From assembly GCA_947586055.1 (NCBI GenBank), contig CANPXL010000012.1:774-64773 (forward strand): DNA of 64,000 nucleotides, written 5' to 3'. Origin of the DNA: an uncultured Acetatifactor sp. (GTDB lineage Bacteria > Bacillota > Clostridia > Lachnospirales > Lachnospiraceae). Under the pieces are notes generated by a model. The model was not told where the DNA came from. It saw nothing but the letters and a program-made list of their open reading frames with translations, and did not search any database. Below are positions 14,831-37,376 of this stretch, piece after piece (the first letter of the stretch is position 1; the number at the start of each line of letters is the position of its first letter). A program made the position numbers and the translations under genes.

Positions 14831-15073
14831 TCAGTTCAGCCGGCAGTCGTATTCATCGAAAAATCATGCTTGCATGAATTTTTCGATGAATACGACTGCC
14901 GAGGGAGCGCCATTCCATGAGCAAAGGCAGGCGCGAAGCGCCGAATAGCGCGCCAGCGCGGCTTTGCGAATGGCGCGAGCTGAACTGATCCGTCCCATGG
15001 CAAAGGAAGGCGCGTAGCGCCGAATCGCGCGCCAGCGCGGCTTTGCGAATGGCGCGTGCTGAACTGGTCCGTT
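14831..15073. repeat. composite palindromic intergenic element (REP/BIME-like)
   Basis: 23-bp perfect inverted repeat 14841-14863/14879-14901; two tandem ~80-bp units (14915-14994, 14995-15073; 6 substitutions + 1 indel); TCAGTTCAGC (14831-14840) is inverted at 14979-14988. Confidence 0.85.
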
Positions 15074-32906: not shown

Positions 32907-34003
32907 GTCTTTCTCCCTCCAAAGTCCGACAGGGGTTCCTTCGCCTTCATGGCCTGCATGGTCCTTCGTCTCAGCTGGCCGCAGGCGCCGTCGATATCCC
33001 TGCCCATTTCCCTTCTTATGGTAACATTTATTTTATTTTTTTCAAGTTTATTTTGAAAAGATCGGATCCTTTCCGCCGAAGAACGCGCAAAATTCCTCTC
33101 TTCCACGGGGTTGACCGGGATCAGGTTCACATGGCATCCAAGGGGGCCCGCCAGCGCCGAAAGCTTCTCCGCGTCCCTGTCCGTGTCGTTCACGCCGCCG
33201 ATCAGACTGTATTCCAGCGTAATCCGCCTGCCGGTGCTTTCAAAATAGTCCGCGCAGGCGTCCATCAGCTCCCGGATGGAATACCTTTCCGCTATGGGCA
33301 TCAGCTTCCGGCGCTTTTCGTCCGTGGCAGCGTGAAGAGACAGCGCCAGCGTGATTCCAAGCTTCTCCCGGGCAAGCAGACGAATCTGCGGCACCAGCCC
33401 ACAGGTGGAGACGGTCACGTTGCGCTGGCTGATATGAAGGCCGTCTTCGTCCGTGAGCATCTTGAGAAAAACAAGCAGATTGTCATAATTGTCCAAAGGT
33501 TCGCCCGTTCCCATAACCACCACGTTTGAGACCCGCTCTTTCGTGTGGCGCGAAATGGCATACACCTGCTCCAGCATCTCGGAGGGAAGAAGGTTCCGCT
33601 CCAGACCGTCCAGCGTGGAAGCGCAGAAGCGGCATCCCATCCGGCATCCCACCTGAGAAGAGATGCAGACGCTGTTTCCATGGCGGTATTTCATCCACAC
33701 GCTCTCCACAAGATTTCCGTCCCCGAGGCGGAACAGATATTTGCGGGTGCCGTCCACGGCGGATTCCTGAACCCGCACGGGCTCCAGGCAGGTACAGGTA
33801 TACCGCTCTCCCAGCTTTGTGCGAAGCTGCGCGGAAAGGTTTGTCATTTCCTCAAAGCTGCCCGCCAGCTTTTTATGCATCCACTGATAAAGCTGCCCTG
33901 CGCGGTACGCTTTCTCCCCCATTCCGGTAAGCTCTTCCTCCAGCTTCGGAAGCGTCATGGACTTTATGTCTTTCTTCTGGATCTCCTGCATCTTTTCCCT
34001 CAC
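32900..34003 (-). CDS. rlmN: dual-specificity RNA methyltransferase RlmN
   Basis: CISSQVGCRMGCRFCAS radical-SAM motif, MGTGEP, DIDGACGQL. Confidence 0.96.
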   Translation of the reverse strand: MREKMQEIQKKDIKSMTLPKLEEELTGMGEKAYRAGQLYQWMHKKLAGSFEEMTNLSAQLRTKLGERYTCTCLEPVRVQESAVDGTRKYLFRLGDGNLVESVWMKYRHGNSVCISSQVGCRMGCRFCASTLDGLERNLLPSEMLEQVYAISRHTKERVSNVVVMGTGEPLDNYDNLLVFLKMLTDEDGLHISQRNVTVSTCGLVPQIRLLAREKLGITLALSLHAATDEKRRKLMPIAERYSIRELMDACADYFESTGRRITLEYSLIGGVNDTDRDAEKLSALAGPLGCHVNLIPVNPVEERNFARSSAERIRSFQNKLEKNKINVTIRREMGRDIDGACGQLRRRTMQAMKAKEPLSDFGGRKTC

Positions 34004-35414
34004 AGCGGCCTTTCTCCGCTCCGCGTCCCTTCCTCTAACGGGTTCTCTCCGGCGTCGGACGGCTTTCTTATGAACCGGGCGATAAAGAAACCGTCCCCCT
34101 GGGTATACCCGGGCAGAAGCTGCACACAGGCCCGCTTCTGCGCTTCGTTCAGCCCCTGCCGGGAAGGTTTCCCGTTCCGGTCCCGCAGTGCCTCAAAGGA
34201 CTCCCGGAACGTCCTGATCTCGCCGGGAAGCCCGTCAAGCGGCGCCGGGTCAAAGGGAAGCTGCTCCGAAATGAATCTCACCATCGCCTCGTTCTCCATG
34301 GCATCGATGGTACAGGTGCTGTAAAGCAGCGTGCCGCCGGGCTTTACATACCGCCAGCTGGCGCTTACGATCTCCTTCTGGAGCATCGTCATTTCCCTGA
34401 CGCTCTCCCGGCTGACATGGTACTTGATATCCCGCTTCTTTCCGATGACGCCAAGTCCCGAGCAGGGCACGTCCAGAAGGACCACGTCGGCCTGTCCGAG
34501 AAGGCTTTCGTCCGTGAGCCGTCCGTCGCGGACCTGCACCTCTACGTTCCGGGCGTCCATCCTGCGGGCCGCTTCCCGGATCCGTTCCGCCCTGTCCTCC
34601 GACTTGTCCCTGGCGAGGACTCTCGCCGCCTTTTCCGCCGCCAGAAGGCTTTTGCCGCCGGGAGACGCACAGACGTCAACCACGAAATCGCCTTTCCGTA
34701 TCCCTGCCGCCTCCACCGCCAGCGCCGAGCTTACGTCCTGAACGGTGAACCACCCTTCCTCAAAGCCGGGAAGTCTGTCCACGCCGTTTACTCCCTCCAG
34801 ATCGTAAACGTAGGGAAGATACCCGCTCGGAGCCGGTGTGATCCCCTGGGCCCGGAAGGCGGCGCACAGTCCCTGCGTCTGCTCCGGCGTCAGGTCCGTC
34901 CGCAGGCGCACGGACACCGGCCTGATCCGCATCAGCCCCTCCAGAATCGTCTCCGTGATCTCCACGCCGTATTCTTCCGCCCAGAGATCCACGATCCAGT
35001 CCGGCATGGAATATCGGACGGACAGATACCGCAGCGGTTCCTTCTCCCTGTCGGGAAGCGGAAGGCTGTCTTTTTGTCTGGCCAGAGTCCGGAGCACGCC
35101 GTTCACAAATCCCTTAAGGCTGCCGAAACCTCTCTTTTCCGCCAGTTTGCACGCTTCGTCGCAGACGGCGCCATCCGGGACCGTATCCATGTAAAGCATC
35201 TGATAAAGGCTCAGGCGCAACAGTTCAGGTGATAATCCAGCTCAATCCGTCTCTCCAGCGTCCCTTCCGTAAGCCGTTTGAGAAACGCTCTGTCCCTGTC
35301 GGGCAGATAATCATATTTGTCCAGCACTGCCCGGATCAGTCTGTGGGAATACTCCTTCCGGCGCTCCAGCGTCAGCAGAGCGTCCAGCGCGATCTCTCTG
35401 ATAGGATTTGCCAT
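34000..35414 (-). pseudogene. rsmB: 16S rRNA m5C967 methyltransferase RsmB/Sun, split by a frameshift at ~35220
   Basis: N-terminal ORF (35414-35211) ends ...ELDYHLNCCA*; the remainder (LLRLSLYQMLYMD...DVCASPGGK...DVPCSGLG...YSTCT) continues in another frame. Confidence 0.85.
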
Positions 35415-35505
35415 GGCCGTCCTCCCTTTCCCCATGGGCGCCTTTTAGCGCTTTCGCCCGGCGCAGGCACATGGGCTTTCCGCGCCCCTGCGGCGCGGTG
35501 CGCCG

Positions 35506-36210
35506 TCAGTCGTCTCTTCTGCGTCCGCCGCCGAAGAGCAGCACAAGACGCAGCAGCTGCAGGACGGAAGATGCTGCGGCAGCCACATAGGTCAGCGCCG
35601 CGGCTGTGAGGACCTTTCTGCTGCCGGAAGTCTCCCGGGAATCCAAAAGGCCGTACTGCCCGATCTTGTCCAGCGCCCTTGCGGAAGCGTTAAACTCCAC
35701 GGGAAGCGTTACAAGCTGAAACAGCACGGAAAGCGAAAAGGCCCAGATCCCGATCTGGATCAACGTATTGTTCCAGGCCAGCAAAACCCCAATCAGGATC
35801 AGGGGAAGGCCAAGCCTGCTGCCGATGTTCACCACGGGCACCAGCGCCGTCCGGAAATTCAGGAAGGCATACCCTCTGTCATGCTGAATGGCGTGTCCGC
35901 ATTCGTGAGCCGCCACGCTCACCGCCGTCACGGACGCGCCGTTATAGTTGCCGCTGGAAAGACGCACCGTGTTGGATCTGGGGTCGTAATGGTCTCCCCC
36001 GCTGTCTCTCAGGCATTCCACCTTCACATTGTAAAGTCCCTCGCTGTCCAGTATCCTGCGGGCCGCTTCCCCTCCGGTCATCCCTCTGCTGTTTCCGATT
36101 TTGCTGTATCGGTTCATGGTGGAATTGACAAGGGCGCTCGCCCCAAGACACAGCACCATGCCGATCAGCACAAGAGCATAAGTGGGATCCCAATAATAAT
36201 AGTATGGCAT
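35506..36210 (-). CDS. neutral zinc metallopeptidase (YugP-like)
   Basis: DHYDP, AAHECGHAIQH (HExxH), LPVEFNASARA, AAALTYVAA. Confidence 0.9.
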   Translation of the reverse strand: MPYYYYWDPTYALVLIGMVLCLGASALVNSTMNRYSKIGNSRGMTGGEAARRILDSEGLYNVKVECLRDSGGDHYDPRSNTVRLSSGNYNGASVTAVSVAAHECGHAIQHDRGYAFLNFRTALVPVVNIGSRLGLPLILIGVLLAWNNTLIQIGIWAFSLSVLFQLVTLPVEFNASARALDKIGQYGLLDSRETSGSRKVLTAAALTYVAAAASSVLQLLRLVLLFGGGRRRDD

Positions 36211-36240
36211 ATCCCGTAGCCTCCTTTTCTTCTATATCAT

Positions 36241-36405
36241 CTGATCTGTTCCGATCTGTCCTGATTTGTTCTGTTCTAATCTGATCTGTCCTGACCTGTT
36301 CTGTCCTGACCTGTTCTGTCCTGACCTGTTCTGTCCTGACCTGTTCTGTCCTGACCTGTTCTGACCTGATCTGTTCCAGTCTGACCTGTTCTGTCCTGTT
36401 CTATC
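36241..36405. repeat. pentamer microsatellite (CTGWY) with 15-bp higher-order unit
   Basis: 33 consecutive pentamers; five perfect copies of CTGTCCTGACCTGTT at 36286-36360. Confidence 0.95.
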
Positions 36406-36425
36406 CCTGCGCCGGTTTTCATTCC

Positions 36426-37376
36426 TTACCGGCTCTGTCTTCCCAGTATCTCCCCCGGCTGCATTTTTACACCCAGTAAAAAGTCATGGGCCGGCATTCT
36501 CTTCTTTCCCTCCAGCTGCAGTTCGCGGATGCGTAAGACGCCCCGCCCCGCGGCCACGGTCACACAATCCCCCGCCGCTTCCAGGATCTCTCCCGGTTTC
36601 GCGCCCTTTTCCCTGTCCGAAGCGTTGTCCGGCTCCGCTCTCCAGATCTTCAGCTGCTTTCCCCGGTAACAGGTATAAGCTCCCGGCCATGGCGTCATAC
36701 CCCGGATCCTTCGGTCGATTTCCTCCGCGGAGCCGGAAAAATCAATCTCTCCCATGGACTTGCGGATCAGGGGGGCGTAACAGCTCTCCCCGTCCTGCTG
36801 CTTCCGCGGCGTCAGCTTTCCCTGCTCCAGCAGCGAAAGAGCCTCCGCCGCCGTCTCGCCGCCCAGGATCATCAGTTTATCGTGAAGGGTCTCATAGTTG
36901 TCCTCCCTGTCGATGGCCAGCTCCCTCTGGTACAGGATATCGCCCGTGTCCAGACCGGCGTCCATCTGCATGATGGTGATGCCTGTCTTCTCTTCGCCGT
37001 CAATGATCGCGTGCTGGATGGGCGACGCTCCCCGGTATCGGGGAAGCAGGGACGCATGGATGTTGAGACAGCCGTACTTCGGAATATCCAGAATTTCCTG
37101 AGAAAGGATCTGCCCGAAGGCCGCCACGACATAAATATCGGCGAAATGCCGCCGAAGTTCCTCCACCGCCTCCGGCGTCTTGATCCGCGCGGGCTGAAAT
37201 ACCGGGATCCCGTGCTCCAGCGCCTTTTCCTTCACCGGCGGCGGGACGGGCGCTCCGCTTCTGCCCTTTGGCCTGTCCGGCTGCGTCACCGCGAGCACGA
37301 TCTCATGCCCCGCGCCGATCAGCGCCTCCAGCGCGCCTGCCGCAAAATCCGGCGTTCCCATAAAAACGATCTTCAT
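36426..37376 (-). CDS. fmt: methionyl-tRNA formyltransferase
   Basis: FMGTPDFA, VTQPDRPKGR, NIHASLLPRYRGASPI, LDTGDI. Confidence 0.97.
   Translation of the reverse strand: MKIVFMGTPDFAAGALEALIGAGHEIVLAVTQPDRPKGRSGAPVPPPVKEKALEHGIPVFQPARIKTPEAVEELRRHFADIYVVAAFGQILSQEILDIPKYGCLNIHASLLPRYRGASPIQHAIIDGEEKTGITIMQMDAGLDTGDILYQRELAIDREDNYETLHDKLMILGGETAAEALSLLEQGKLTPRKQQDGESCYAPLIRKSMGEIDFSGSAEEIDRRIRGMTPWPGAYTCYRGKQLKIWRAEPDNASDREKGAKPGEILEAAGDCVTVAAGRGVLRIRELQLEGKKRMPAHDFLLGVKMQPGEILGRQSR

Follow-up and report, generated by a model that had tools for sequence, protein, structure and literature searches.

The question raised by this locus is why a long run of pentameric repeats should separate two genes of a housekeeping operon, and whether the run encodes or regulates anything. 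The window, i.e. the whole 64,000-nucleotide stretch of contig CANPXL010000012.1 that was analyzed, carries on its minus strand the genes priA-def-fmt-array-yugP-rsmB-rlmN-stp-pknB, all in the same orientation, with stp (PP2C phosphatase) and pknB (PASTA kinase) at the downstream end. The initial annotation described the fmt-yugP gap as filled with 33 CTGWY pentamers including five perfect 15-mers, and considered a small repeat peptide and a contingency locus as possible functions. Our analysis points to a simpler answer: the array is probably a lineage-specific minisatellite in an operon spacer, a functionally inert, tolerated filler.

Read letter by letter on the minus (mRNA) strand, the array comprises 32 in-register pentamers with zero indels, a copy number taken from the source assembly alone, as the contigs of three other assemblies break at this place. 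The motif RWCAG (CTGWY on the plus strand) is fitted by 28 of the 32 units. The four degenerate ones are ACTGG, ATTAG, AACAA and ATCGG, and still weaker units (GATAG, ATGAT) border the array, thus the count of 33 was roughly right. The five perfect 15-mers could be recovered as well: they consist of AACAG, GTCAG and GACAG, in this order, and run from 36360 to 36286. On both sides of this core, which is the youngest section of the array, the pentamers become increasingly degenerate (eight units toward the 5' end, nine toward the 3' end). TRF assigned a score of 209 to period 15 and 109 to period 10. The composition of the sense strand is 42% A, 29% G, 19% C and 9% T.

Table 1. Coordinates of the features discussed in the text. 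Positions refer to the window unless another contig is named.
Feature	Location	Strand	Basis or remark
fmt, methionyl-tRNA formyltransferase	36426..37376	-	PF00551 5e-43, PF02911 3e-29; stop TAA 36428-36426
Predicted 6-bp hairpin GCCGGU/ACCGGC	36411..36433	-	in both MFE and centroid structures
48-aa ORF with RTGQD repeats	36276..36422	-	in frame with fmt; judged non-gene
Tandem array, 32 pentamers (28 RWCAG)	36241..36400	-	direct count and TRF
Core, five perfect 15-mers, likely slippage unit	36286..36360	-	shift identity
Shine-Dalgarno AAAGGAGG of the yugP-like gene	36220..36227	-	9 nt before ATG; -11.8 kcal/mol
Zn_peptidase_2 (YugP-like) gene, downstream of array	35506..36210	-	PF04298 3e-89
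CsrA-family genes	C36 12509-12664; C3 71726-71875; C6 101017-101166		
GC-rich repeat family	window 14915-15072; C3 56153; C9 61104; C5 22165; C17 15353; C37 18203; C24 8965; others		
Promoter-linked pure tracts in other genomes	L234 1501-1553; L235 1501-1548; L239, L134, L141, L149, L163, L169, L186, L187, L189, L196, L198, L222		

We could confirm that the array is real and that its length is far beyond chance. Given the genomic frequency of CAG (0.0218 per position), the expected number of runs with at least six CAGs in register is approximately 0.0006 per genome; the fmt-yugP locus contains 28, and it is the sole run of at least six in the 2.8-Mb assembly. A genome search for similar arrays, which the initial annotation had suggested, yielded no second run of this kind; the short-period arrays in gaps between same-strand genes numbered 41. 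An exact-protein look-up found three short contigs from other assemblies whose Fmt or YugP protein is the same. L032 and L033 enter the array with a sequence identical to that of the window and stop inside it, and the third (L031) begins immediately 3' of the array. Since the three contigs share the sequence of the array edges, the array is not an artefact of the source assembly. Two of the look-up contigs were aligned base by base and proved to be 100% identical to the window except for one indel each, therefore they represent the same strain and no independent evolution.

For comparison we used 24 congeneric species, each with one representative, plus outgroups. The fmt-yugP junction is kept in 22 of the 24 congeners, with a gap of 4-111 nt vs. 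215 nt in the window; in the other two there is no yugP beside fmt. None of the 22 junction-keeping congeners, nor any of the junction-keeping outgroups, has an array at this site. A pattern search for (CAGNN)7 in 100 congeners gave hits in five genomes, all outside the fmt-yugP locus. Similarly, no such array was present in 80 metagenome loci encoding Fmt relatives, none of which came from the same species; the best Fmt identity in the metagenome contig search was 71-73%, hence this set does not provide a comparison between strains of the species. The array is lineage-specific and absent from the orthologous site of the relatives, which indicates a recent local expansion. Several congeners have short seed-like words directly before the RBS, e.g. 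GACAGAAAGGAG and GAGACAGATAGAAAGGAG, and it is plausible that words of this type served as seeds for the expansion of the array. The same layout was seen in a different operon of a congener (G051; L236, 1501-1533), where a heterogeneous run of seven CAGNN units directly follows the flgD stop codon and lies ahead of the RBS belonging to a small flagellar gene.

The yugP-like gene has a strong RBS of its own, AAAGGAGG, located 3' of the array, and its pairing with the anti-SD sequence (-11.8 kcal/mol) is much stronger than that of sites within the array (-4.0 to -4.6 kcal/mol); these energies were computed against a generic anti-SD because the 3' end of the 16S rRNA was not found in the assembly. 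A promoter and terminator scan of the fmt-yugP gap found no site, and scanning the gap with the Rfam 15 covariance models gave zero matches with E-values up to 10. In the predicted fold of the array RNA there is nothing beyond GUC/GAC helices of 3 bp, and the estimated ensemble frequency of the MFE structure is 0.0006. The predicted folding energy was below that of shuffled sequences (z = -4.1), so some weak periodic pairing exists, which counts against an inert filler.

These observations are best accommodated by a lineage-specific long simple-sequence repeat (minisatellite) that would have grown by replication slippage, starting from a purine-rich leader in front of the RBS of the yugP-like gene. 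The run of RWCAG pentamers would be the older part, decayed at both ends, and in a later step the 15-bp triple-pentamer unit would have been amplified to five perfect copies. The array is presumably transcribed within the polycistronic mRNA, where its low U content and weak structure would make it tolerable: it brings in no terminator or promoter signal and leaves the strong RBS of the downstream gene untouched. It stretches the fmt-yugP gap to 215 nt. It would not act as a switch, while the 48-aa frame would be a by-product of the T-poor sequence. Perhaps a filter of this type operates in operons, by which only expansions free of U-tracts, strong structure and start or stop signals are tolerated. 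The array alone matters little, being an ordinary tandem repeat that recently expanded in a non-coding gap; it could be used as a strain-typing marker, and it is a warning that T-poor repeats yield spurious ORFs.

It is useful to compare the array with the long simple-sequence repeats (LSSR). LSSRs with units of 5-11 nt occur sporadically, lie mostly between genes and have no known function (Mrazek, Guo and Shah 2007, summarized in PMC4679880); LSSRs also serve as a proxy for phase variation (PMC11868660). The fmt-yugP array resembles LSSRs in its short head-to-tail unit, in a length exceeding what composition and chance would allow, in its intergenic position and lineage-specific, sporadic occurrence, and presumably in its origin by polymerase slippage (PMC4679880). 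It differs from them in being hierarchical, with three different pentamers combined in a 15-bp super-unit, and in lying inside a housekeeping operon with a sense strand rich in purines, a trait that it shares with most arrays of the genome.

The purine bias of spacer arrays was assessed in a census, which combined TRF on the whole assembly with our own rough codon-usage gene caller (81% coding), hence all its counts are approximate. Thirty-eight of the 41 short-period arrays found in gaps between same-strand genes were purine-rich on the sense strand, and the fmt-yugP array had the highest score among the short-period arrays of the genome. The mean purine fraction of the sense strand was 0.734 in the arrays, vs. 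0.614 in all same-strand gaps and 0.557 in coding sequence, and all 29 polypurine tracts that could be classified were on the sense strand; it must be noted that this bias may be confounded with the purine bias of the leading strand. Among the 415 same-strand gaps of at least 100 nt, 22 contained at least 72% purines. Examples of spacer arrays are C16 58473-58542, C31 29334-29445, C7 94365-94460, C24 12963-13095, C49 6391-6557 and C23 27000-27100. The prevalence of purine-rich arrays (38/41) fits the model of slippage seeded in purine-rich leaders. At the C7 junction (94362-94468, between genes for 290-aa and 386-aa proteins) the closest congener (G015, L275) has a 203-nt purine-rich repeat built from a different unit, and the junction is 12-38 nt long in more distant congeners. 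The different repeats in the two species imply that such arrays turn over quickly.

An array of this composition could also serve as an RNA platform, in line with the protein-binding array considered in the initial annotation. Its CAGGAC motifs or its weak SD-like AGGA/AGGU sites would then be landing points for CsrA or 30S subunits, by which the translation or decay of yugP-rsmB-rlmN-stp-pknB could be tuned or CsrA titrated. The array contains seven CAGGAC motifs at 15-nt spacing and nine GGA in total, the genome has three genes of the CsrA family, and CAGGA-type units recur in other spacer arrays, as (CAGGAYAAGR)n at C31 29307-29444 and (GACAGGAAA)n at C16 58473-58542; in addition, nearly all spacer arrays of the genome have a purine-rich sense strand. 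The CsrB RNA of E. coli contains ~18 CAGGAxG repeats, and the array shares with CsrA-titrating RNAs of the CsrB/RsmZ type the multiple CAGGA-type motifs and the presence of CsrA genes in the genome. Nevertheless, we find this role rather unlikely. The array differs from CsrB/RsmZ by being in an mRNA spacer instead of forming a separate sRNA, and it is conserved at the fmt-yugP junction in no relative. The predicted fold presents its GGA motifs in no stable hairpin loop, and any A/G-rich repeat would be expected to contain GGA anyway. Sites within the array pair weakly with the anti-SD. Moreover, in Firmicutes the known antagonist of CsrA is a protein, FliW, not an RNA, and the genome has neither TRAP nor, according to our gene search, Hfq. 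Two of the three CsrA-family genes score identically, which suggests that one of the pair is a recent duplicate or mobile copy.

A TRAP-regulated leader, to which the period-5 NAG triplets could have pointed, was rejected: no PF02081 gene was found, with Bacillus subtilis giving the positive control. TRAP sites in Bacillus trp leaders consist of 9-11 GAG/UAG triplets spaced by 2-3 nt. The array is similar in having NAG triplets with a period of ~5 nt in a predicted unstructured RNA, but its triplet, CAG, is the weakest TRAP ligand, and the genome does not encode TrpBP (PF02081).

A broader version of an RNA-level role would place the array in a class of repeat spacers, spread across the lineage and lying inside operons, that are poor in U and rich in purines in the sense orientation and are kept for their action in the RNA. 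That two species have an expanded purine-rich spacer at the C7 junction could mean that such spacers are kept, and the purine bias of the sense strand could reflect selection for a role in the RNA rather than mere tolerance. We consider the membership of the fmt-yugP array in such a class unlikely. If it were true, the spacers would be, e.g., docking platforms for CsrA or ribosomes within operons, setting the expression or stability of downstream cistrons, and their sequence would turn over fast by slippage while their composition was maintained. The wider pattern, namely that nearly all short-period spacer arrays of the genome show a purine-rich sense strand and turn over between sister species, is possibly worth attention.

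The initial annotation proposed that slippage in 5-bp steps changes the frame of the small ORF and the spacing to the downstream genes, thus the array could be a contingency (phase-variable) locus; on this reading the number of repeats would switch the frame or alter the spacing and in this way change downstream expression. Pentanucleotide contingency repeats are known, such as CTCTT in the opa genes of Neisseria and the repeats in type III mod genes of Haemophilus and Neisseria (PMC2667262, PMC1557822). The fmt-yugP array has the 5-nt periodicity and the potential for slipped-strand mispairing in common with them; however, the known repeats are pure, lie in the 5' region of coding sequences and shift the frame in 5-nt steps, whereas the array is heterogeneous and non-coding and has a 15-bp unit. 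The 75 bp of five perfect 15-mers should indeed be slippage-prone. The identity of the core with itself is 0.73 at a shift of 5 nt, 0.74 at 10 nt and 1.00 at 15 nt. Because a misalignment by one pentamer creates two mismatches per five bases, the unit of gain or loss is expected to be 15 bp. This corresponds to five codons, hence slippage should keep the frame, which removes the frame-switching logic of the contingency idea. The claim of frame-changing 5-bp steps does not agree with these values.

Nor does the position of the array favor a switch. A contingency tract would be expected to be pure, to have a unit that is not a multiple of three, and to lie in a coding 5' region or in a promoter spacer; the array has a period of 15 nt and lies in the space that separates a stop codon from an RBS, outside any promoter or genuine coding region, among housekeeping genes and upstream of a yugP RBS that is independent of it. 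It could be argued that the breaking of short-read contigs from other samples at the array is compatible with length heterogeneity, but the breaks also fit low (~2-fold) coverage and ordinary repeat collapse. The pure pentamer tracts of related Clostridia that adjoin promoters and 5' ends of genes (see below) would be in favor of the contingency reading. On balance we consider it very unlikely.

The 48-aa ORF noticed in the initial annotation does exist, with its RTGQD repeats and with its ATG located 3 nt past the fmt TAA, and the doubt expressed there about its translation appears to be well founded. A functional peptide could be made e.g. by termination-reinitiation past the fmt stop codon: the ATG is in frame with fmt, and such a tight stop-to-start spacing can allow reinitiation. 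However, none of the three sense frames is interrupted within the array (they encode RTGQD, EQVRT and NRSGQ repeats) because the array has only 9% T, therefore the openness of the 48-aa ORF carries no weight. The AAGGA that could act as SD is weak (-5.1 kcal/mol) and abuts the ATG with essentially no spacer, the stem and loop of the predicted hairpin (Table 1) take in the fmt TAA together with the ATG, and the peptide is of low complexity. The small ORF is absent from all relatives examined at the fmt-yugP junction. With neither frame-specific openness, nor a well-spaced RBS, nor homologues, the ORF is most likely not a gene, and we regard a functional peptide as highly improbable.

That the array acts on the opposite strand, with its C/U-rich, G-poor complement (~29% C, 19% G, 42% U) stopping antisense transcription into fmt like a Rho loading site, is scarcely probable. 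The genome encodes Rho, but the scan predicted no antisense promoter in the vicinity, relatives have no conserved counterpart of the array, and the proposal is wholly inferential.

Arrays of CAG-containing pentamers are not restricted to this species. Scanning one genome per species for ten CAGs of period 5 found at least 120 loci in many phyla; among the matches listed (123 arrays), 90 were pure pentanucleotide tracts and 14 had at least three kinds of unit. In Clostridia, tracts consisting purely of (CAGAG)n or (CAGCA)n lie a few bases downstream of a conserved promoter-like TTGACAG..ATG..TAnnnT or abut the 5' ends of ORFs. In many Clostridia the pure tract starts ~5-9 nt after the promoter-like AAGGRCTTGACAGnnATGC..TAnnnT, and, where the downstream sequence is available, several of the tracts are followed within ~10-110 nt by terminator-like elements consisting of a hairpin and a T-run. 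An Rfam scan of three of these loci (L234, L235 and L239) found no family at the arrays. The promoter-linked pure tracts may be a family of small RNAs or variable leaders. Their layout is as expected of switches or small RNAs and differs from that of the heterogeneous, intra-operon fmt-yugP array; a search of the source genome for the promoter context of the congeners' pure arrays found none. Two further pure pentamer tracts, at the ends of contigs (L152 3-75; L162 5-52, minus strand), run into ORFs whose N-termini, judged by eye, look like membrane acyltransferases. If the ORFs encode such enzymes, this would match the textbook arrangement of a gene for phase-variable surface modification.

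Two minor observations concern other parts of the window. The rsmB gene is split into a 74-aa ORF with the NusB domain (35211-35435) and a 406-aa ORF (34000-35220), with the breakpoint near 35226 (in 35200-35435, the 5' part of the gene). The window lacks 49 bp of rsmB that are present in L031 (a DRR855150 contig, otherwise with 0 mismatches in 2139 nt), and the loss of these 49 bp causes the frame shift. Compared with L031, the contig L032 (ERZ27249426) lacks 75 bp at this place, and this loss is in-frame. The indel is either a genuine deletion hotspot or an assembly error. Finally, many intergenic gaps of the genome contain, in tandem, a GC-rich dispersed repeat family (Table 1) with ~80-nt units that include GCGCGAAGCGCCGAA and GCGGCTTTGCGAATGGCGCG; this family resembles REP or MITE elements.
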